Positions 3,051-61,151 of a DNA stretch of 64,000 bases are shown here, piece by piece. This DNA comes from Octopus vulgaris (Eukaryota), in contig OX597819.1 in NCBI GenBank assembly GCA_951406725.2, positions 82,274,001 to 82,338,000 of the forward strand, read 5' to 3'. Below the pieces are notes generated by a model that saw only the letters and a list, made by a program, of their open reading frames with translations, did not search any database and was not told where the DNA came from. A program made the translations under genes and the position numbers. Every line of letters begins with the position of its first letter. The stretch's first letter is position 1.

Positions 3051-3337
3051 AGTTACTCAAATTCATTCCCACTACTTTGTGCGAAAGTACTTTTATATGC
3101 ATGTAGGCATCTTTCAGAAATTCTATTAATAATCTCATTGGTTAACAGAATAGACAGGGATTCCTTGGAGTAGAGTTGGTACCTCCTGGAAATGATACTA
3201 TATGGCTTTGTGTGCCTTACTATGGACCAAGTTATGTTATAATTAATTTTATCTTCCTTAAGTCACCACACAGATGGCCAAAGATGTTGAGTGTCTTTAT
3301 AAATTCTCTTGATTATGCATGTGTATGTGTGTGTGTA

Positions 3338-4167
3338 CAAGGTATTTGGACTAAATTTGACAGTTTGCATAAAAGAAAATAAGACAATATCTCATTCAAA
3401 GATAAAAGTATTTTAAAAAATAAAAAAAATAACTAGATTATGGCTAAGAGGCTGGGAGATAATAGTTTATTCAAAGTAGGAGCCCTCAACTTCCACCATC
3501 ACCTCATGATAGCTCCAGAAACTGGCACATGTGTTCCTCACTGTGTCCCTTGGTTATCAGCTTAGCCTTACTATGGCAAGTAGAGTGGTTAGGTCTTTCT
3601 CAACTGCACCTCATAGATAGTAATCCAGGGGATTACAAATGGAGGAATTAGGAGGCCAGAAACTAGAACTTGTGAAATCAAAAGAATTCTCCAACAGCCA
3701 CTTTTGATTCTTTTTCGAGTTACAAGAAGGAGTCAGATCCTACTGTAACACATGGCCTTCCAGCAACACTCCTCTCCACCCAGGAATTGACCACATTTTC
3801 TCCAACAGCTCCATGTAGCCATCTGCACTGAGCCCTGTTCAACGATTTGGGAATGGGTTCCAGGTTACAGACACAACCAGAATGCTTTTTGTGGCCTCCC
3901 TGATAGCCACAGGTTTGGGGTCTACATTACAGATATTCATATCACATCTTCTAGCCTTTGCAATGTGTACAGAACCTTGAGAAGCAATCATGGTGTTGGC
4001 ATTTTGATAGCTGCCAAATATCATCATCATACAGGTAACTCTTTTCCAGTATTCAGATGACTTCCACTCCTTTATGCTCTCCAATGCCATTGACTGTTCA
4101 CCAACATATCAAGCTGTTCCTAAATAAGGAGATGTAAGATATTGTCAAATTTATCCTGAACACTCTG
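3338..4167 (-). mobile_element. Internally deleted Tc1/mariner-superfamily DNA transposon relic (DD37D/maT-like)
   Basis: Imperfect TIRs CAAGGTATTTGGACTAAATTTGACA and TGTCAAATTTATCCTGAACACTCTG; minus-strand remnant ..QKWLLENSFDFTSSSFWPPNSSICNPLDYY.. resembling WPPxSPDLNPLDY. Confidence 0.7.
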
Positions 4168-13491: not shown

Positions 13492-13526
<35 letters not shown>

Positions 13527-13532
13527 TTCAAT

Positions 13533-13760
13533 TAAAAGCAGCAGAAATATAACAAAACCTGTTACTCAGAGTTTCACGTTCCCGTTTGTCATACAGTTAT
13601 CTTTTTTTTTAAAAAAACTGTCTGATGAACGGGAATGGGAAACTCTGAGTTACAGCTTTTGTTATATTCCTGCTGCTTTTAAATAAAGCATATTACTCTA
13701 CCTCTGGTATTTGAGTATTCTTTTTTCCACCTTGTTTCACATTTATGTGCTTACTCCAGT
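13533..13760. mobile_element. Palindromic PLE-terminus mini-element with two inverted hammerhead motifs, flanked by (TA)n
   Basis: 13533-13598 is inverted relative to 13616-13681; the arms match the PLE terminus at 23920-23995. Confidence 0.75.
13618..13655 (+). ncRNA. Minimal type I hammerhead ribozyme motif, stem II decayed; antisense partner at 13559-13596
   Basis: CTGT-CTGATGA-ACGGGAATGG-GAAAC-TCTGA-GTT-ACAG; the partner reads CTGT-ATGACAA-ACG GGAA CGT-GAAAC-TCTGA-GTA-ACAG. Confidence 0.65.
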
Positions 13761-23920: not shown

Positions 23921-24640
23921 TTTATTTAAAGCAGCAGAAAATTCAACAAAACCTGTTACTCTGAGTTTCGCATTGCCGTTCATCGGACAGTTTTTGCTAG
24001 AATAGAACCGATATGTCAAATCTATCCAGACTAGTATAAACGCTACACCTTTAAAAATGAACTTGTTTGATTGGTCCTTTACAAAAATTACAATTATTAT
24101 TAAATTTATATGTAGTCTTATCTCTACATGTACAATAAATTATATCATGGTCTTTATTATTATTATTCAAATCATTATTTAATTTATTTTTGTAGAATTT
24201 ATTTAATTTAAATTTATTAAATGAAGAAATAATATTACCAACATTATTAGTAGTTGAATACCCAACTTCAAAATTATTATTAGAAAAATGTTATAATATT
24301 TTTTATTATCCCTAATGAACATTTCAATTATATTTAAAATCTCTTAAATAACATTTGTTTTTACCTGAGCCCCAAAAGGAACGATTAATCATTTTTTATT
24401 CTTATTTTTTTATATTATCATCAAATTTATTATCAACATTAATTGAATTAATTTTTATCTTATTTTTATTTTTTATTCCATTATTAAATGTATGATTTAT
24501 ATTATCAAAATGCCTATTATTATTAAGACCATAGTTACCTAAATAAAACGTATCATCATTCAGATAATTAGGTTTATTATTATAAAAATTATTTATATTA
24601 TAATCCTTTAAATTATAATTATATTTACAAATATTAAAGA
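23920..24640 (-). mobile_element. Decayed Penelope-like element fragment (Hydra-type thumb/linker and HHR terminus) ending in (TA)n
   Basis: Minus-strand remnants VPFGAQVKTNV..GYSTTNNVGNIISSFNK..Asn-rich..YCTCRDK resemble the PLE PPFxxxVKTN..SYS..IIxxHN..CxCR pattern; HHR motif at 23953-23990. Confidence 0.7.
23953..23990 (-). ncRNA. Minimal hammerhead motif (CCGATGA core variant)
   Basis: CTGT-CCGATGA-ACGGCAATGC-GAAAC-TCAGA-GTA-ACAG. Confidence 0.6.
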
Positions 24641-24644
24641 TAAT

Positions 24645-24970
24645 AGGTGCAGGAGTGGATGTGTGGTAAGTAGCTTGCTTACCAACCACATGGTTCCAAG
24701 TTCAGTCCCACTGCGTGGCACCTTGCACAAGTGTCTTCTATCATAGTCTCTGGCCGACCAAAGCCTTGTGAGTGGATTTGGTACATATATATATATATAT
24801 ATATATACAACAGGCTTCTTTCAGTTTCCGCCTACCAAATCCACTCACAAAGCTTTGGTCAGCCCGAGGCTATAGTAGAAGGCACTTGCCCAAGGTGCCA
24901 CACAGTGGGACTGAACCCGGAACCATGTGGTTGGTAAGCAAACTACTTACCACACAGCCACTCCTGTACA
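24645..24970. mobile_element. Two SINE family 1 heads in inverted orientation joined by (TA)n
   Basis: 24645-24783 (+) and about 24810-24968 (-) are reverse complements. Confidence 0.9.
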
Positions 24971-25656
24971 TATTAAATGATTTCAGAATATCCCTATTTG
25001 ATTTGACTTGTATGTTTTACAACTTGTGCATATGTAAGGTGTTGAGAATCACTAGGGCACAAAAACATGACTGGAGAATAGACTGATGAAGACATACAAT
25101 AAATAATTACATGCGAAGAAGGGCAAAGTAAATTTCAAACTACTCATTATAAATAATGAAAGAGCATTGAAAAGTTAACTACAAAACTACAAATAAATAT
25201 GTAGTGAGGGCAAACATTTCTTCTCTTTTATCATTCTTCAGCATCGAGAATAGCTTAGATTTTTTGTATTATTAGTGATTCTAAAAGGAATAAAGGAAAA
25301 TTATTTCAAGAAATCAAAAAAATCTATCTTACAAAATTATTTTAAATATTAAAAGAAAAATTTAATCTATTAGCAGACAAGGTAAGAGCTATGGACACAC
25401 TTCAGTCTTGCTTGATCTCATATGTCACTTAGATGTAATTGGCTAGAGTTACTCTATTATATCATGTTATAAAATTTGTGGTATCATACTGCTGAGTATA
25501 GTTGCAATTCTTTCACCACAGACTCACACCCACACTCGCACATACTCACATGCTACAACTCATTTAAAATATATTCATAAGTATTGTTGGTCTTTTGTTT
25601 TATACTGAAGAATTCTAAAATGTTAGGTCTGTAACAAATAGATTATATAATAAAGA

Positions 25657-42440: not shown

Positions 42441-43235
42441 ATCATCATCATCGTTTAATGTCCATTTTCCACACTAGCACGGGTTGGACGGTTCGACCGG
42501 GGTCTGGGGAACCAGGGGCTGCACCAGGCTCCACTCTGATCTGGCAATGTTTCTACAGCTGGATGCCCTTCCTAACGCCAACCACTCCGAGAGTGTAGTG
42601 GGTGCTTTTTACGTGCCACCAGCACTGGTGCCAGGGGAGTCTGGCATCGGCCACAATCGGTTGGTGCTTTTAACGTTCCACCAGCATGGAAGCCAGTCGA
42701 GGCGGCGCTGGCATCGGCCACGTTCGGATGGTGTTTTTATGTGCCACCGGCACAGGTATCACAACTACTATTTCCATTGATATTTATTTCGATGTTCATG
42801 TACTTGACTCAATAGGTCTCCTCAAGCACAGCGGGATGTTCTGGAATCCAAAGTACTTTGAATGGGCAAGGGCTATGCGGAACTGGTGTAGGAAGCAGCC
42901 CGGGTCTTTGCAGTCACAGCATATCTCCAGAGATCTCAGTCCTCCACCATTGCCTCTGTGAGGCCCAACGCTCTGAGGTCATGCTTGACTACCTCATCCC
43001 ATGTCTTCCTAGGTCTACCTCTTCCCCTGATACCTTCAACTGTTTGGGAGCGGCACTTCTTCACACATCTCTCCTCATCCATCCGCAGTACATGACCATA
43101 CCATCACAAGCGTCGCTCTTGCACACCACATCTGATGCTTCTTATGTCCAGCATTTCTCTCAGGGTGCTTACCCTCTGTCGTACGCACACACTGACATTA
43201 CACATCCAGCAGATCATGCTAGCTTCATTTCTTTC
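42441..43235 (-). mobile_element. RTE LINE 3' fragment (ORF end, 3'UTR, tail)
   Basis: ERNEASMICWMCNVSV..IRCGVQERRL..WYGHV; (CAT)n tail at 42441. Confidence 0.92.
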
Positions 43236-44046
43236 ACATTTAACGTATAGAATTACGTCTATGATCATCAGCAGAACTGATTCTGAACACATCATAAATA
43301 AACGACCAACTTTACCTGGCGAAGACGAATAGATATCTATTCACTCCGGCGAAGCACATGGAAATGTTTATAAATCATATATTCGGTAAATGGCGGGCTT
43401 TTTCAAACTGCATGTCGGGTAAGAAAAGTATTTCGGAATAAATTTAACAATTAAGGATAACCTCTTAATAAGGAATCTTAACAAGAAATTATCAGGTAGT
43501 TAGCGTGAAAAACCTCATAAGAGAAAAAATTCGAAAATAATTTTTTTCTTTTGAACATATTAATTATATTTTATAGAGGGCATTATTACACATAAATGCC
43601 TCACACTAAGAGGGATAAAGCCCGCCATTTACCGAATATATGATTTATAAACATTTCCATGTGCTTCGCCGGAGTGAATAGATATCTATTCGTCTTCGCC
43701 AGGTAAAGTTGGTCGTTTATTTATGATGTGCTCAGAATCAGTTCTGCTGATGATCATAGACGTAATTCTATACGTTAAATGTGAAATCACGGGTGATACA
43801 GAACTAAATTCATTTTTTTTTAATGTCTTGCTTTGAAAAACTGCATTAGGTATGATTAGTGTAATTTTGGTAGTAATGACATTTGTCCCTCTTAGTGTGA
43901 GGCATTTATGTGTAATAATGCCCTCTATAAAATATAATTAATATGTTCAAAAGAAAAAAATTATTTTTTCTCTTATGATGTTTTTCACGCTAACTACCTG
44001 ATAATTTCTTGTTAAGATTCCTTATTAAGAGGTTATCCTTAATTGT

Positions 44047-44051
<5 letters not shown>
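43232..44051. mobile_element. Retrozyme-like non-coding HHR element with interleaved inverted repeats A B A' x B'
   Basis: A 43232-43401 is the reverse complement of A' 43617-43786; B 43442-43615 is the reverse complement of B' 43886-44051; HHR at 43740-43805; ends in (TA)n. Confidence 0.8.
43740..43805 (+). ncRNA. Type I hammerhead ribozyme motif
   Basis: Stem I AGTTCTG/CAGAACT; core CTGATGA; stem II CAT..ACGTA/TACGT..ATG with a U-U closing pair; GAAA; stem III ATCAC-GG-GTGAT; predicted cleavage after ATA (A43798). Confidence 0.75.
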
Positions 44052-44089
<38 letters not shown>

Positions 44090-51560: not shown

Positions 51561-52611
51561 TCTAGTAACATATTCAAACCCACATGCCTACAGCCAAAAT
51601 ATCAATCCCACCACACAGCTTTCTAGCATTCAGCAGTGGTGCACACTTACAGTCATACTTCACAGTGATGCATAAACTGATAGTACATCACACTTTCAAC
51701 AATCTGTTTTTGCCTTCATTCACTTACCCTGCTTCATTGTTTTACCTGTCAATACCTTATTATTTCAACACTTCTAGCAATTAAGTTCAGTTAAAGAACA
51801 TACATTTCCTTCTTTCAAAAGAATATATTTTACTTTGTCTTCCATCAAAGACCCATGTTGGCAATGTCAAAAACATTCCCTCTATTCCTTCCTTACAGCA
51901 TAAAACTAAAACTAAAGTTTTTGGTGCCTTCTGGGCTTTGGATTTTTATTTTCCCATTTATTTCGCTTTGTTTCTGATACTTTCCATGAAATTAACTACT
52001 GAAGTTAACTCTTCTGAAGTTATTGCCTTGTCCTATACATACAGACTTCTTAAATCCAACCTACAGACAATCACTGTAAATATGAGTAACTTTAGCCATA
52101 ACAATGTCTGTGTGAAAATGCTAACTCTGTATCTTTGAAAAAAAAATCTATCAGGTACAACTGAAAACAGAATGATGCCAACTTAACTTAAGTTCCTCCA
52201 GTTTAGAAGAGCCATATATTCCTTTTTTGTTTGAATTTCAGTGGCATTCCTCCAAAACTGTTTTCCCTTTTTGCAAGTGTTTATAAATGTATCAGACTAA
52301 CTATCTCCCACATCTCTAATTAATTTATTGTTGCCAATACATTTTAAGATGATAAGAGGGTTGAGCTTTGATGTTCTCATGAGTAAATTAATAATAGCAG
52401 GTATGCAAAAGATAAGTTAATAACTATGAATGTTTATCCTATACAATTATTCATGTATCAGTTTTAAATTCTGGTTATCTTACCGATATAAAGATGAATT
52501 TTTCTAAACTATATTGGAATGAGAATTAAATAAATAGCAATAAAACTTTCATCCACTCAAGAAACAGTGTGAATATATTCTATATATATATATGTGTACG
52601 TGTGTGTGTGT

Positions 52612-52797
52612 GCTGTGTGTGTATCATTCACTATCTTTTTCCTCTGTCTTCCCTTCCTTGGATTTTTCTATGTTTCTGACGAAGAGCTCCGCTCAAAACG
52701 TAAAAGGCTTTTTCTATTCCTGAGCATTATACTAATACATCTGTTTGTTTTGTACACCACCTGTCTTCATCTTTTGTTTTTTTCATAAACTCTCTCT
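52612..52797 (+). mobile_element. Mini-element with minimal HHR motif (52673-52705) in TA/TG microsatellite
   Basis: TTT-CTGACGA-A-GAGC TCC GCTC-(A)AAAC-GTA-AAA; the GAAA G-to-A change is at a CpG. Confidence 0.65.
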
Positions 52798-52805
52798 ATA
52801 CATAA

Positions 52806-52882
<77 letters not shown>

Positions 52883-52980
52883 TGTATATATATATACACA
52901 AATGTATATATATACACACACATGTATATATATATATATACACATGTATATATATGTACATGTATATGTGTATATGTATA

Positions 52981-53166
52981 TAGTCAATCCAAGCAAGAAA
53001 AAACAACAACACAAGGACATGGTACAAGGACTGTGTTATTGAACGCTCAAGAAACGAAAGGGAAAAAAGAGCATTTCATTTTCAAGCGGAGCTCTTCATC
53101 AGAAATAAAGAAAAAATCCAAACAAGGAAAGATAGAGAAAGAAAATCACCAACGATACACACGTGG

Positions 53167-53168
<2 letters not shown>
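52981..53168 (-). mobile_element. Related mini-element with minimal HHR motif (53074-53105), opposite orientation
   Basis: Minus strand TTT-CTGATGA-A-GAGC TCC GCTT-GAAAA; (TA)n on both sides. Confidence 0.6.
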
Positions 53169-53211
<43 letters not shown>

Positions 53212-53352
53212 GCAATAAAGATTCAAGTCAATTTAAATGAATTTACTTGAATATGGTACCTAACTTAGATGCACCAAAAAACTATACGGTTTTAACAATA
53301 CAGTAATGTGGGGTGATTATAAGCGAGAAAGAAGCAACAAGAATGGATAAGT

Positions 53353-53443
53353 TTTTAGTACAATCGTTTCATACAAGGGCAGGCTTTATTAAAAGTTGCA
53401 AAAATTGCAGCGTATAAACGTGTCCCGTACTCATCAGCTAAAA
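53353..53443 (-). ncRNA. Type I hammerhead ribozyme motif (left arm copy)
   Basis: Reverse complement of 56183-56273 with one substitution in stem II. Confidence 0.78.
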
Positions 53444-53800
53444 TACATGTGAGTTCTCTAGACATCTTAGTGGTTCAGGCTATACTCATAAAGTAATGTA
53501 GATAATTAAGTAACATAAACAGATTTCCAAAGTTCATTAAAGTTCTTTAAAGATGATGTACAGTCTTATCACAGAATTTTAAAAAAGTTTTAATAGCATC
53601 ACAGAGAAGGTGACTTAATCCATAGTGTACATATGAATTTCCAGAGATATGAGGAGGGATTACATACTCACAGATGACAAATTTATCCATGGCCAATCAC
53701 AATGAGGTGGGTCTCAATTCCTGCTTATTAGCATTACAGAGAGGGTGAATTAATCTTTTGTATAGATGCACAATATAGAAATAAAAATAATAATATCAGC

Positions 53801-54706
53801 ATGAATACCAATAGCAATTATTATAATAATACTACCAACAATAAAAACAGCAATAGTAACTATCATAACATGGGTGAAATTAGTAACCACAGAATGACTA
53901 ATAACATTAACATTAATAGTAATAATAACAATACCGATATTAATAGAAGTAATAATGTTAATAATAGAAATAATAGAAATAAGGCTAATGGAGAAAATAA
54001 GGAGAATGAAAATATCAGTGATATCTATAACAACAATATGCAGTCGGATAAAAAGACTAACAATAATAGTAACATTACCAATAATATAAAAAATCATGGT
54101 AGGACTTTAGACCTAAAAGATGAAACAGAAGGATCAATAAATAATAGCAATACTTTAGATATCAGCACCAACTATAAAAATATTAATAACAATAAGGACA
54201 ATTATACTCATGATAATCAAAATAATAGGAACCTAAGACATCTACCCAAGAATAATCCAAAACCTGAAGTTGTTCCTCCTGTGTGTAAGTGTAGAATAAA
54301 ATCAAAATGCCCGGCACCTGGTCTATGCGGGGAAAATAACGTAATCTATAAATGTACCATATCCACGGAGAATAACAAATATTTTTACATTGGATGTACA
54401 ATTAATTTTCTAGCCAGAGTTAGAAATCACATCTCGTCTTTTAAATTACGTCATAAAGCTGGTACCACCACACTTTCAAACAAAATCTGGGAACTCAAAA
54501 ATAATAACAATAATTATAACCTTAATTGGGAAATAGTTAGGAGAGCAATTCCGTATAAAAATAGCAGGGTTGGTTGCCAACTATGCTCCATGGAGACGTA
54601 TGAAATTCTAAAGCATAGAAAACATAGAAACTTATTGAATAACCATATCGAACTAGGTCAAGTTTGTGTCCACGCTAAATTGAAGACTTTAAAATATTTT
54701 AAATGA
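53801..54706 (+). CDS. Asn-rich linker + CxCx5C + GIY-YIG endonuclease (C-terminal part of a PLE polyprotein)
   Basis: CKCRIKSKCPAPGLC..NVIYKC..YFYIGCT..R.RNHISSF..TTLSNKIWELK..NWEI..CQLCSME..LLN; uninterrupted 301-aa ORF; the frame stays open upstream to the arm junction, so the ATG may be internal. Confidence 0.85.
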   Translation: MNTNSNYYNNTTNNKNSNSNYHNMGEISNHRMTNNININSNNNNTDINRSNNVNNRNNRNKANGENKENENISDIYNNNMQSDKKTNNNSNITNNIKNHGRTLDLKDETEGSINNSNTLDISTNYKNINNNKDNYTHDNQNNRNLRHLPKNNPKPEVVPPVCKCRIKSKCPAPGLCGENNVIYKCTISTENNKYFYIGCTINFLARVRNHISSFKLRHKAGTTTLSNKIWELKNNNNNYNLNWEIVRRAIPYKNSRVGCQLCSMETYEILKHRKHRNLLNNHIELGQVCVHAKLKTLKYFK

Positions 54707-55446
54707 TTAGAATATTCGTAACTAGATAGATAGATAGATATAACTTGATTTTTACTAGTATAGCACTGCTTTAAGTAGATAACTAAGAGTTCTCACACTA
54801 CAGTTATCTTTTTCCTTATATCTGCATCAGTTTTTTGAGAACAGGGAAATGAATAGTACTTATACGCTGCTTAATTGAGGCTTTATTTAATTTCAAATTC
54901 ATAATTTTAAATCTTAATTTTAATTTTTTTAATTTTTAATTCTTAACTTAATCTAATTTAAGTAACATAACTTTAATAAAATAAAATGAGTTACTAAAGC
55001 CTCATAATTCTATTTCAAAATTAAATAAGTAAGGCTACACCCTCGATGATAGTATGAATATCTTCATTATCATAGACAATTCCCTAACACCTTGTAAATG
55101 ATCTTCTAAGATTTGACCTGTAGTCCGTCAATGTATGAATAATAACGGCAACTCCTTAAGACAGTAAAACGAATAAATTAAATAAATAAATTTTAATGAC
55201 TTTTTGATAAGATTATACTTAGATTTTCCTAATGTATTTTCTTTTGATTTTAGCCTTGGACCCCTATACCCCTAACCTTGTTATCTCTTTAGATTCTCTT
55301 TAAATTCATAGCTGCTTTCAACGGCGTCACGTTAGCAATAAATTAGCTGTTTTACTGGTCAAGGAATAATATTCTCCTCTAGTTCCTAGATGCCTGCAAA
55401 TTAAAACCAGACTTGCCGTCTACTAATTCTTCTGTATAACTAGAAC

Positions 55447-55655
55447 CCTCTTTTTCTTTTTCTTTTCTCCCTTCTTTCCCTCTTTCTTTTCTTTCTCTTT
55501 TCTCTTTTTTCTTTTTTTTCTTTTTCTTCTTCTTATTCTCTTTTTTCTTTTTCCTTTTCTCTTCTCTTCTAGTCTCCCCCCCCCTTTTTGCTCCCTCCTC
55601 CTTTATTTTCTCTCTTTTCCTCTCTTTCCTTCCCTTTCTGTTCTTTGCCTCTCTA
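55447..55655 (+). repeat. Polypyrimidine tract inside the PLE 3' region
   Basis: About 200 nt, almost exclusively C/T. Confidence 0.9.
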
Positions 55656-55715
55656 GAAAGCCCTTTAGCCTTTAAAAGTTAAATAGCTACAGTCTCTTGA
55701 AAATAGCAGTAATGT

Positions 55716-56040
55716 GATTAATGTGGCAAATACCTAATCATATAGCAAGAATTGATACCTACCTCATTGTGTTCAACCATTGATAAATTTATCGTCTGTG
55801 AATATGAAATTCCTCTTCATTTCTCTGGAAATTTACATCTACACCATGGGAAATTGTGCATCTATACAAAGGATTAATTCACCCTCTCTGTGATGCTAAT
55901 AAACAGGAATTGAGACCCACCTCGTTGTGATTGGCCATGGATAAATTTGTCATCTGTGAGTATGTAATCCCTCCTCATATCTCTGGAAATTCATATGTAC
56001 ACTATGGATTAAGTCACCTTCTCTGTGATGCTATTAAAAC
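55716..56040 (+). repeat. Degenerate 135-158-bp tandem repeat within the PLE 3' region
   Basis: GAATTGA..ACCTC.TTGTG at 55749 and 55907; GGATTAA.TCACC.TCTCTGTGATGCTA at 55871 and 56006. Confidence 0.75.
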
Positions 56041-56182
56041 TTTTTAAAATTCTGTGATAAGACTGTACATCATCTTTAAAGAACTTTAATGAACTTTGGA
56101 AATCTGTTTATGTTACTTAATTATCTACATTACTTCATGAGTATAGCCTGAACCACTAAGATGTCTAGAGAACTCACATGTA

Positions 56183-56273
56183 TTTTAGCTGATGAGTACG
56201 GGACACGTTTATATGCTGCAATTTTTGCAACTTTTAATAAAGCCTGCCCTTGTATGAAACGATTGTACTAAAA
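56183..56273 (+). ncRNA. Type I hammerhead ribozyme motif with extended stem II (right arm)
   Basis: TTTTAG-CTGATGA-GTAC GGG..TTTAT..TGCAA TTT TTGCA..ATAAA..CCC TT GTAT-GAAAC-GATT-GTA-CTAAAA; predicted cleavage after A56267. Confidence 0.8.
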
Positions 56274-56303
56274 ACTTATCCATTCTTGTTGCTTCTTTCT
56301 CGC

Positions 56304-56347
<44 letters not shown>

Positions 56348-56426
56348 ATGTGTGTGTATCTATGTATATATGTATATCTATCTATATATATATATGTATG
56401 TATAAGTATATGTATGTATTTGTATG

Positions 56427-56463
<37 letters not shown>

Positions 56464-56467
<4 letters not shown>

Positions 56468-56509
56468 TCATCGTTTAACGTCCGCTTTCCATGCTAGCAT
56501 AGGTTGGAC
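56464..56509 (-). mobile_element. RTE tail-only insertion (~46 bp) in (TA)n
   Basis: CATCATCGTTTAACGTCCGCTTTCCATGCTAGCATAGGTTGGAC. Confidence 0.8.
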
Positions 56510-56532
56510 ACATATATATATATATATAAAGA

Positions 56533-59500
56533 CAAAATAGAGTGAAAAAAACTACAGAACACTTAGGTTATATGGTTAAAGAATATATTTAAATCATTAT
56601 GTTAGGAAAATGTTATAAAATTTTGTGCAAAGTGACATTGTTTTGGGAGAAAAAACCAGTTTCGTATTTTCTTCTGAAATTTCTTTATCAATATTGTCAT
56701 CTCTTTGCTATGAAGTGAAGTATGAGAGTTCTAGAAAGGGGAAGGTAATTAGGGATTTTTTCCGTATAAGGGAAATAATAAAAAATGTTGGGAATGACTA
56801 GGTTTTATTAATTTAACATGATTTGGTTTAGAAAGAATAGAATGTTAGAAGTGGTTAAGTTTTGCTTTATATTTTTTTTCAAAGAGGTAAGTTTCTTTAT
56901 TTAAAATTGCTAGAAATGGTTAAGTTTTGGCTTATATTTTTCAATGAAGTAGGTTTCCTTATTTAATCTAACTTGTGTTGGTGTTCCAAAGGTACATTGA
57001 TAAAATGGAAAGATTACAAATATTGGTAGCAGTTGCTTTGTGCATTTTTCAATGTGTGCACTAAACAGAATCATTCTGTATTCTGGGAATGCACTTTGCT
57101 GTCAGTGCAGAGTGCATCTGCATCTGAGTGATAATTCCATGGACCCTATGTTAGTTTTAGTAGCAGCCCGAGCATCTTATAACTCTTATAAATCAGGTTT
57201 TCTGAGGCACAAGTAAAGTCAGATTTGATTTTGAATTTTTGTCCTTCTTTCAAAAAGGAATTCTGATCCTTCTAGAAGGCTTGGGCATGTTGCAAAATTT
57301 GGTTGACCCCATTTCTTCTCTTTTGTGTCCATTATTTTAGAAAATGATTTTACCTTTGTGAGGATCTTTTTTAGTGATTTCAGTTTGTGGCTTTTAATGA
57401 TCTTATGTTTGTGTGAAATTTCCTTTTTTCCAAAGAAAAAAATATAAATAACAAACAAAACTGAACAACACACAAATTTTAACCACTTAGTCAACATCAA
57501 CCCACCTCATTATCCTCTGTACACCATAAATATAAATCACCAACCCCCACTAACATTTTTTAACCACCCAAAACTAAACAGTGAACAAGCTGACAACAAA
57601 CACATTTATGAAATAAATTACACCAAATCTAATGATCACCTGTATACCAGGAACAACACACACCAACAACGTCCCAATACCAGGCATAACCATCCCATAA
57701 CAACACAAACCACCACATACCAGGCACTACTACCACATGACCCAAAATTACTGGTCCCCACTGAGCACATGAACAGCACAAAATAATACTAGGTCAAGAA
57801 ACACCCCACATACAAGAAATTCCAAGCAAAAATATACCACATACAGAAATGTTACACACATCACTAACCAAAACACCCACACACACATAACAATCTGAGG
57901 CAACAATACCACCATTCCCCTGGACCAATCCCATACAACCTCAGAAACAGCTCATGCAAACAAAACTACAACCAACATTTTTTAGCCCCCTGCAAAAAAT
58001 AATGAAAGGATCAGCTAAGAATTGAATTGGTTGAATTCATCCTACAAAACAACCACTTCATGTTTGATAATACGTTCTATCGACATAAAACCCATAATTG
58101 CCATGTGGGCACTAAGGCAACCCCGGTCATTGCAAACCTAACAATGGCCTATCTGGAAATAATAATATACCAGGAATCTTTATCTACCTTTGTAAACCCT
58201 TTTTCCTAATACATAAAAGAAAATTTAAAAAGATTCCTAGACAACTGTTTCATCCTCTGGAATGAAAACACAGACAAACTCCTGAAATTCAAAAGACTAT
58301 TAAACAGCATCAACCCAAACATACAATTCACAATGGAATACAACCAAAAGGAGCTCCCATTCTTGGATATGCTAATTAAAAAAATAAACCTAAAAATAGA
58401 AATAGACATATTCTACAAAACCACACATGCCAAACAATATCTATTATCTAATTCATGCCACCCAAGACACACGAAAACAAACATTTTCAACCTTGCAAGA
58501 AGGATATGCACAACATTGTCAGAAAAAATACCAGAAACTTTAGACTGCAAGGACTCAAAAACACCCTGATTGACAGACACTACCCAGTTCAACTCATAGA
58601 GGATGGACTCAGACATGCAACACAAATCAACATAGAAACTTAAGAAAAGTCCAAATTTTACACACATACAAGATCAGTAAAAACCACAAACAAATGAAAC
58701 CACTAAAACATACCCTCACAAAAGCAAAATTATTTTCTAAAATAATGGACACAAAAGTGAAGAAATGTGGTTGACCAAATTGTGCAACATTCCCAAACCT
58801 TCTAGAAGGATCAGAATTCCTTTTCAAAGAGGGACAAAAATTCAAAATCAAATCTGACTTTACTTGTGCCTCAGAAAACCTGATTTATGTTATAAGATGC
58901 TCGGGCTGCCACAATAACTACATGGGATCCATGGGATTATAGCTCAGATGCACTGGACCTACAGCAGAGTGCATTACCAGAATACAGAATGATTTTGTTT
59001 AGTGCACACATTGAGAAATTCACAAAACTGCTACCATAATTTGTAATCTTTCCATTTTATCAATGTGCCTTTGGAACACCAACACAAGTTAGATTAGATA
59101 AGGCAACCTACTTCATTGAAATATATATGCCAAAAACTTAACCATTTCTAGCAATTTTAAATAAGGAAACTTACCTCTTTGAAAATAATATAAAGCAAAA
59201 CTTAACCACTTCTAACATTCTATTCTTTCTAAACCAAATCATGTTAAATTCATAAAACCTAATCATTCCACACATTTTTGATTATCTGCCTTATACCGAA
59301 AAAATCCCTGATTACCTTCCCTTGTCTGGAACTTTCATACTTCACTTCATAGCGAAGAGATGACACAATATTGATAAAGAAATTCGAGAAATTTGAAAAG
59401 AAAATACGAAACTGGTTATTTCTCCAAAAACAATGTCACTTTGCACAAAATTTCATAACATTTTCCTAAAATAACAATTTAAATACATTCTTTGACCATA

Positions 59501-59536
59501 TAACACAAATCTTCTGTAGTTTTTTCACTCTATTTT
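56533..59536 (+). mobile_element. Older Neptune-type Penelope-like element with an inverted 5' copy of its own 3' ~890 bp
   Basis: About 56533-57415 is the diverged reverse complement of about 58660-59536; RT and GIY-YIG remnants at 58020-59145. Confidence 0.88.
58020..59145 (+). pseudogene. PLE reverse transcriptase + GIY-YIG pseudogene
   Basis: FILQNNHFMFD..GTKATPVIANLTMAYLE..RFLDNCF..INPNIQFTME..LPFLD..FYKTT..SCHP..FNLARRI..KCG*PNCAT..FTCASENLIYVIRCSGCHNNYMG; frameshifts and stops. Confidence 0.9.
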
Positions 59537-61151
59537 ATACATCCAATCACATGCTTTCACATCCTAACTCCCTCACCTATATACATCTATATATACACAC
59601 ATGCAGAACCCATTATAACAAAGATTTGCAATTTTCACTTAGTAGCATCTCATACAGCTTTTGTGGCTGTCTGAGCAATAGCTGCACTCTTTCAACAAAT
59701 TTATCTATTAATTACCATTCAGGATTAACCATCTCAAGGTGTAGGGCAAAATTAGAAATATATTCTAACACTGTGTGTATTATTTCCTTGGCCTTGTGAT
59801 GCATTTAGCAATTTTTTTTATTGATTACTAAATATACACTACCAGATAATTTATTCAGAAGCCCAGTTGAAAGAACATGTGTGATTCTGATTGTTCTGAA
59901 CTTGACTATAAAGAAATAAAGCCAACAGGGAAATTGTTTTGTTGTTAGGTTGAAAGGTTCTCTACAAAGACTATGATGATTAAATTGTTTAGAGCAAGAA
60001 TAGAAATAATTTCATTTATAAAAACTTATTTATAAGGTCTATAGTATGTTATGTATAATTAACATTATCTTTTCTATGTAAAGAATCTTAGTGTTTGTCT
60101 CAAAAGGAGAAATTAGCAAATTTTTAAAGAATGGGGTAGGTTATAGCTGATATAATCTTACATATACTTACTCCATTGATTCCTGAAGGATAAAATATAA
60201 ACTCAATATTGACATGATTTGAAAGTGAATGCAGAAATAAAAATATCATAATATAATTTACCCTTTATTTCTGATGTCTTTTCATTTTACAGATTAAATT
60301 ATCTGTATCCACCAAGCAGTGAAATTAAATTATATACCTTTTACTCCCCTTTAAACATTAAAACAATCTATACTTTATAGCATCAAAAAAAAAAAAACAT
60401 AGCCAGGTTAAATGTGATTACTAGGAAAATATCACTGGTGAGCAAATATTCTTTGGTCATTTTTAACCTGACTGTTTTTATTTCTGATGTTGAAAACATA
60501 GAATAATGAAAATTGCTTTTATATTATTTATATATGAAGTAAACATTGTAGATAGACTTTGAAAGTGAGATGGTGTCCGGACTTGAACATTTTTAATCTT
60601 AGGACTGTTGAATCAGAATTAACCTGGTTGAACCACAATATACTACTTATAGTTTGAATAGCATTTTCAATAAAGAAACATTATGTTTAATCTCATACTT
60701 GATATTACTTATAGTTAGCACATAAAATAGGTCTAGTCTATCTTTGAGTTATTTGATTTTTAAACAATTCCATTTTTGTAGGTCTATGTAAATTTACTTG
60801 ACAATTAATTCATTTCTATGATGATGGCTATGGTTTGCTAATAGGCTCAGAATAAGACTTCTTCATGTTTAGAGTTATTTTTTGCATTTGCTGTGTAAAT
60901 AAAAGGCATATTTAACCCATCAAATTTGAATTCAGCAAGTCAAGTTATGTGTTGCTTCACTGAGTCCACTAAATATTACTTATTAATTGATAACATTTAA
61001 AAATTTTTTTGTATATTTCCTTCTTAATTTTCTATTGCTCCATACTGTAAAAGTGTTGATGCTATCTTACCTACTTACTAATGTAGAGTATTATTACTTC
61101 CCTGATTATCTCAGTATTTAATACCTGAGTAACTTAACTGTATTAAATAAG

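Follow-up and report, generated by a model that had tools for sequence, protein, structure and literature searches.

The 64,000 nt stretch of Octopus vulgaris DNA considered here (contig OX597819.1 of GCA_951406725.2, positions 82,274,001 to 82,338,000; hereafter the window) contains a foldback element at 53208–56303, in which an open reading frame (ORF) for a GIY-YIG endonuclease (EN) of the type found in Penelope-like elements (PLEs) lies between two inverted arms. The locus opens with a (TA)19.5 microsatellite at 53169–53207, detected with TRF and taken as the left end of the target. It is followed by a 115 nt segment (53208–53322, minus strand) that lies outside the shared arm, includes a hairpin at 53221–53252 and probably extends the left copy, and then by the left arm (53323–53774, minus strand), an inverted, 5′-truncated copy of the element's 3′ end. 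The ORF (53732–54706, plus strand) runs uninterrupted for 324 codons from stop to stop, as a preliminary description of the locus had stated, and its frame is indeed open up to the junction at 53774, the first 14 codons being left-arm sequence; it is element-derived from about 53775, with the first ATG at 53801. An Asn-rich stretch of about 170 residues (53775–54283, plus strand; 36 % Asn) occupies the position of the variable linker between the thumb of a reverse transcriptase (RT) and the EN. It leads into a CxCx5C linker (54284–54328, plus strand; CKCRIKSKC at 54284–54310, with a fourth conserved Cys at 54326) and the Hydra-type GIY-YIG EN (54335–54706, plus strand), with conserved R at 54416, E at 54593 and N at 54638, presumably the catalytic residues, as in GIY-YIG enzymes. 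A non-coding spacer of 1146 nt (54707–55852, plus strand) includes a pyrimidine tract at 55440–55660 and the first of two imperfect, tandemly duplicated units. The right arm (55853–56303, plus strand) is the sense 3′ end, or pseudo-long terminal repeat (pLTR) region, and ends 36 nt past the predicted cut of its hammerhead ribozyme (HHR), at a TATA entering the (TA)n microsatellite at 56305–56338 (TRF), the right end of the target.

The arms had been described as near-identical, with about six substitutions and one indel, and alignment bears this out: the 452-column core carries six substitutions, all of them transitions, and one indel. A local alignment of the pair (53318–53774 with 56308–55853) covers 457 columns with eight differences; arm divergence is 1.3 %. 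The outer ends are unequal, at +36 nt (right) and +151 nt (left) from the predicted HHR cut, and the segment at 53208–53322 has no partner on the right side and, apart from its own hairpin, no match elsewhere in the window. Long, near-identical inverted arms might also stem from an artefact of assembly, or from the terminal inverted repeats of a DNA transposon or foldback element. However, the arms differ at seven sites and in end length, each holds an HHR in PLE geometry, and the ORF is a PLE-type GIY-YIG with no other long coding frame beside it, so that such origins are hardly credible here. Two statements of the preliminary description stood in part. The region 3′ of the ORF is non-coding, but the arms enclose only 1146 nt of it, and the 1.6 kb originally given requires the right arm to be counted. 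Likewise, (TA)n adjoins the right arm (56305), but the left tract sits 115 nt outside the left arm. The tandem duplication in the 3′ region comprises units at 55746–55903 and 55904–56038 (158 and 135 nt, about 81 % identity), and the truncation point of the left arm falls inside the first unit. A K/R/E-rich antisense frame at 55379–55678 was rejected as a gene, being the complement of the pyrimidine tract.

Craig et al. (2021; PMC8557442, section 11) characterize the Hydra clade of PLEs by a CxCx5C linker, lack of the CCHH motif, CxxC and CxH motifs around the conserved E and N, HHRs and (TA)n targets. Judged by its motifs, the predicted EN has every one of the EN-side features. Besides the linker, it has the VIY...YIG form, with a CxxC ahead of E and a CxH behind N; CCHH is absent, and no CxxC occurs between GIY and YIG (VIYKCTISTENNKYFYIG), as is the case in all 109 parsed sequences (0/109 with CxxC there). 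The CCHH zinc finger of Neptune, Nematis, Penelope-Poseidon and Naiad, two Cys of which fall between GIY and YIG, is not present. The pattern CQLC..E...N...CVH around the conserved E and N recurs in 106 of the 150 matches listed, these being the best 150 of 3502 relatives found with phmmer. By eye, the EN resembles the Hydra rows of Fig. S7 in PMC8557442. Among the remaining Hydra features, a sense-strand HHR near the 3′ end was found in a strict scan, though with an atypically long loop II, and the insertion is into (TA)n, on the left only if 53208–53322 belongs to the element. Whole Hydra elements are usually shorter than 3 kb (PMC8557442), a tendency not followed here, where the EN and 3′ region alone make up about 2.5 kb. 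The clade is also marked by an RT with RWK and DKT motifs in the ORF that encodes the EN; since no RT sequence is left in this copy, it is classed here as a fragment produced by truncation and not as an autonomous element. The assignment to the Hydra clade proposed in the preliminary description, from the CxCx5C linker, the C-terminal GIY-YIG and (TA)n, is therefore supported by the motifs, by the literature and by the control loci described below.

The last 153 residues match Pfam GIY-YIG weakly, with an E value of 0.0012 that falls short of the curated cut-off, and Pfam returned no family for the whole ORF. A structure model of the EN (pLDDT 92.8) aligned best with the catalytic domain of I-TevI (1ln0_A; Z 10.8, root-mean-square deviation 2.4, 90 residues aligned), and the best Foldseek E value was 0.063. 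Searching bacterial and archaeal genomes with the EN turned up 179 matches to the pattern, none of them a relative. In a quick tree of 66 rows (61 RT-bearing sequences, four chosen others and the window), the window groups with protein P0001 (SH-aLRT 95), and this pair joins the RT-bearing P0004 and the thumb-bearing P0119 (88); a FastTree of 62 rows agrees. Tree rows are Hydra-like matches only, with no Neptune, Poseidon or Naiad outgroup, and the branch of the window and P0001 is long (0.8 in the quick tree).

Each arm contains an intact HHR core, as previously noted. A strict scan for type I HHRs gave exactly two matches in the 64 kb, namely the arm pair, and none in each of 30 simulated control windows. 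The parts are stem I (TTTTAG/CTAAAA), the core CTGATGA, stem II, GAAA, a stem III of 2–3 bp and a GUA cleavage site. The right-arm HHR (56183–56273, plus strand; core at 56189, GAAA at 56256, loop II of 44 nt) is sense to the ORF with a predicted cut after 56267, and the left-arm HHR (53353–53443, core start 53437) lies on the minus strand with a predicted cut after 53359. Both are predicted to be minimal type I hammerheads. Rfam gave no matches over the window at the gathering cut-off, the hammerhead included, and at E≤10 over 52500–60000 gave 53 matches, mostly microsatellite-driven miRNA, with no hammerhead; free RNA folding does not produce the hammerhead either (z −0.26). Metazoan PLE ribozymes have a short stem III, are thought to act as dimers and, when minimal, cleave poorly as monomers (PMC4209133), and the short stem III is compatible with both the silence of Rfam and the free fold. 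In an RNA read through both arms, the 452 bp duplex (−796 kcal/mol) would be far more stable than the HHR fold (about −10 kcal/mol), and each HHR would thus be hidden. The earlier suggestion that transcripts from either strand are trimmed by an HHR is doubtful on these grounds, and since HHR cleavage is also dispensable for insertion of the PLE PAc in vitro (PMC11167929), double trimming is unlikely.

The 44 nt loop II, against 3–10 nt in File S2 of PMC8557442, could indicate that the HHR arms come from a separate short pLTR or retrozyme-like family that captured, or inserted next to, a fragment of a Hydra EN and a spacer of host origin. The 1.49 kb gap between stop and HHR, with its pyrimidine tract and internal duplication, would suit such a chimera, and pLTR-mediated capture and host-derived spacers have been described (PMC3846280). 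However, no other HHR core was found between the stop and the right arm, even allowing one mismatch, the HHR lies on the sense strand of the ORF, and the succession of HHR, TATA and (TA)n is that of Hydra elements; a composite origin is accordingly improbable. Nor does the element fit the definition of non-LTR retrozymes, whose non-coding units repeat directly in tandem and each contain a type I HHR, given that the HHRs here are inverted with an ORF between them.

The element contains no RT, in agreement with the preliminary description, and 61 RT-bearing relatives align to it only from 54116 onward. Relatives of sufficient length do have one. Among those of 397 or more residues, the RT motif YRDD was found in 53 of 54 and a thumb-side motif in 54 of 54; among the 150 matches listed, the thumb-side motif occurs in 28/30 that extend 100 or more residues upstream of the linker and in 15/15 that extend 150 or more, as detected with a thumb-side hidden Markov model trained on 24 of the same 150. 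The distance from thumb motif to CxC is 5–14 residues in 41 of 48 sequences (longest 119) and 5–15 in all 54 of a second set. Longer linkers do occur at this position: P0103 has an Asn-rich linker (50 % Asn) that runs for 83 residues past the thumb motif, and the linker of P0011 reaches 119 residues. When longer proteins were sought with the EN alone, 0 of 310 candidates qualified. In Adineta Penelope elements, Asn-rich inserts several hundred residues long occur in frame, in one case between RT and EN (PMC3846280). The only close match among those listed is P0001, an Octopus sinensis gene model with 75 % identity that shares part of the Asn-rich stretch. Its Met aligns near window residue 82 and not at a window Met (24, 47, 55 or 103), and its C-terminus diverges after WEIVR. 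This model is a linker–EN fragment of a Hydra PLE, and the name under which it is annotated, 'myelin gene regulatory factor-like A', is likely to be wrong.

PLE insertions have been described in the literature as commonly carrying an inverted, 5′-truncated copy at the 5′ end, and the Hydra family Penelope-13_HM has such a copy, with HHRs on both strands (PMC8557442). The same architecture recurs in three (L001, L004 and L006) of 13 Hydra-type control loci (L001–L013) fetched by RT patterns, an inverted 3′ copy being joined head to head in each, at differing points. Both strands of L004 and of L006 carry an HHR, and the inverted copy of L006 comprises 758 identical nt. In L010 it is an internal part that is inverted, whereas L008 and L011 contain short, truncated pieces that are EN-only and have an HHR and (TA)n of their own. 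The control loci sit in contigs of bacterial genomes and metagenome-assembled genomes of the GTDB set, where they are probably contamination from host animals. Closer by, at 56534–59536, an older, RT-bearing PLE shows the same foldback. Its arms (56534–57421 and 58653–59536) are 88 % identical over 903 columns, with 75 substitutions and 34 gap columns, and it retains decayed RT frames (58006–58569) and a decayed EN whose GIY–YIG interval contains two Cys. This EN is Neptune-like by eye against Fig. S7, with no relevant Pfam match. Foldback architecture is therefore not unusual for PLEs.

The two termini of the window element can likewise be compared with known ones. Hydra families in Files S1 and S2 of PMC8557442 end 30–48 nt past the HHR cut in 10/24 cases, 88–153 nt past it in 11/24 and elsewhere in 3, and the window ends (+36 and +151) match these two groups. 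TATA occurs 31–49 nt past the cut in 7 of 10 control loci; L004 and L008 end at TATA in (TA)n, and L005 and L011 extend to about +105 to +118, with the extra terminal stretch of L005 repeating the element's 5′ start. The right end of the window element is at such a TATA (+38). In the left copy, TATA is followed by GTATTG, as in L003, with the variant GCATTG in L002 and L007. A GYATTG-type continuation follows only 1 of 879 isolated TATAs of the window, a pattern noticed post hoc; the full pattern TATA-N15-17-GYATTG is not significant (2 matches against 2.78 expected, and 2/13 loci), and only its post-HHR position is suggestive. The better conserved GAGCRC part is absent from the left-copy extension. 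On this comparison of ends, 53208–53322 is probably the element's long 3′ terminus, or 'tail' (+151), with host flank as the alternative. Seven of 10 Hydra-type loci (L002, L003, L005, L006, L007, L009 and L011) also have a conserved motif xTxGAGC(A/G)C, 54–74 nt beyond the HHR cut; it is repeated in L002 and is perhaps a promoter or RT-binding signal.

In the light of the motifs, the tree, the literature and the control loci, the element is most likely a 5′-truncated Hydra-clade PLE with a head-to-head inverted 3′ fragment, which is what the preliminary description had offered as the simplest reading. It is probably a single insertion that was dead on arrival. A full-length master element (RT, thumb, Asn-rich linker, CxCx5C and GIY-YIG, with a long 3′ spacer and HHR) would have supplied the protein, and the EN would have nicked the (TA)n tract. 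Target-primed reverse transcription may then have begun at the element's own TATA, 36–38 nt past the HHR, and the first product would have stalled in the Asn-rich linker at 53775, with no RT sequence retained. From the opposite strand, synthesis may have been primed a second time, at the longer terminus (+151), and have halted some 570 nt on, whereupon the two stalled products would have been joined head to head. Such a course of two events is suggested by the biochemistry of PAc, for which AT-rich nicking, extension on both strands and priming at two internal start sites are reported (PMC11167929). The 115 nt extension, if element-derived, could not have been supplied by fold-back copying of the first cDNA.

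If the calibration in PMC13282606 (a distance of 0.09 for 25 million years) fits this host, the insertion is at most about 2 million years old. At the observed arm divergence, the probability of the ORF remaining intact under neutral decay is 0.30–0.48. An intact ORF is thus to be expected by chance at this age and is no sign of selection.

Several observations weigh against a truncated copy of an RT-bearing element. The distance from stop to HHR is 1486 nt in the window and 97–197 nt in nine control loci, and the Asn stretch of about 170 residues exceeds all 102 linkers measured. The best RT-bearing match has only about 41 % identity, P0001 itself is without RT, and no RT-fused close relative was found in the protein libraries searched, in which eukaryotic transposon ORFs are probably under-represented. 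The first ATG (53801) has an A at −3 and would give a protein of 301 residues. The junction at 53774 has no palindrome (longest 3 bp) that would point to the published self-priming route, and no microhomology is visible on its ORF side. Since the control loci were chosen by RT patterns, they also give no measure of how frequent RT-less copies are.

A rival reading is an RT-less, multicopy, non-autonomous family, in which the whole foldback would be copied via its pLTR ends by the RT of a helper PLE acting in trans, and which may express an Asn-EN protein from the ATG at 53801. Both known members, the window element and P0001, are without RT, share the Asn stretch and sit on a long branch (0.8); the spacer and linker lengths are atypical; pLTRs suffice in cis for mobilization in trans (PMC3846280); and stand-alone GIY-YIG ORFs are known in Terminons (PMC6431247). 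Set against this, the frame reads straight across the junction and there is no separate 5′ leader, the start and C-terminus of P0001 do not coincide with those of the window ORF, the intactness of the ORF needs no selection, the read-through duplex would hide both HHRs, and only one copy of the foldback is present in the window. Such a family is unlikely, although it is the least improbable of the alternatives. The earlier proposal of a self-propagating, EN-only family has no positive support beyond the lack of RT in both known members. Slightly more doubtful still is an octopus Hydra lineage that has lost its RT and spreads as a fixed foldback, expressing only an Asn-tailed, (TA)n-nicking EN and borrowing RT in trans.

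The truncated Hydra-clade copy that we favour has near counterparts among described elements. With the Hydra clade (PMC8557442) it shares CxCx5C, absence of CCHH, CxxC and CxH around E and N, a sense 3′ HHR and the (TA)n target, and with Penelope-13_HM the inverted, 5′-truncated copy and second HHR; it departs from the clade in its lack of RT, in an Asn-rich stretch that covers about 170 residues, in the 1.49 kb separating stop and HHR and in a loop II of 44 nt. Hydra-1_Obim of O. bimaculoides differs from it in linker and HHR sequences. The motif CRIKSKCP was absent from the searched supplement text of PMC8557442, and the family may stand elsewhere in that supplement, in Repbase or in Dfam. 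Outside the clade, Pen2a of Adineta vaga (Arkhipova et al. 2013, PMC3846280) has an in-frame, Asn-rich insert between RT and EN, Pen1 of the same rotifer a long spacer of 0.9–1.5 kb ahead of the 3′ pLTR, and Adineta Penelope 5′-truncated copies lying between inverted pLTRs, a tail being present on one arm only; these rotifer elements have a 31 nt tail and palindromic junctions, whereas the window element has a Hydra-type EN, a 115 nt extension and no palindrome. The Poseidon element PAc from Anolis carolinensis (PMC11167929; Frangieh et al. 2024) serves as a mechanistic model in which two internal RT start sites give a tail, but it belongs to another clade, its tail is 30–40 nt, and head-to-head joining is not shown for it. 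Terminons (PMC6431247) similarly have ENs without fused RT, although these retain CCHH and lie within giant elements that have RT. Non-LTR retrozymes (10.64898/2026.07.22.740005) are HHR-bearing, non-autonomous PLE derivatives, although as non-coding direct tandems they lack inverted arms. No endonuclease-only Penelope was found in the literature searched, which included few subscription papers and had Repbase and Dfam outside its scope.

Further repeats of related appearance occur in the window. Directly left of the element, an older inverted pair of short repeats (52574–53206), each with a CTGA(C/T)GA core and a small stem II, face each other across a TA tract. Nested inverted segments at 43232–44055 (43232–43404 with 43614–43786, 98.8 %; 43438–43619 with 43882–44055, 94 %) contain CTGATGA...GAAA motifs at 43271 (minus strand) and 43747 (plus strand) that fail the strict HHR scan, and are possibly a non-coding PLE derivative. 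Decayed Hydra-type remnants are found on the minus strand at 3071–3340 (an EN C-terminus) and at about 23950–24380 (a thumb-side motif, then an Asn/Lys-rich linker, CxC and a degenerate HHR-like stretch). Self-palindromic segments at 24641–24975 and 13521–13693 are related to a repeat frequent in the window.

As a truncated copy, the element is an ordinary one. It marks an octopus Hydra family unmatched in the searched supplement text of Craig et al., with an Asn-rich linker and long spacer otherwise met, within the literature examined, only in descriptions of rotifer Penelope, and it reveals the host gene model P0001 as a PLE fragment. An RT-less family, if real, would amount to a division of labour between PLE partners in which the EN supplies the integration half, an arrangement not found in print in the literature searched. 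The unequal ends of the window element (+36 and +151) favour two independent primings over fold-back copying of cDNA, and in this respect bear on the origin of head-to-head inversions in PLEs.

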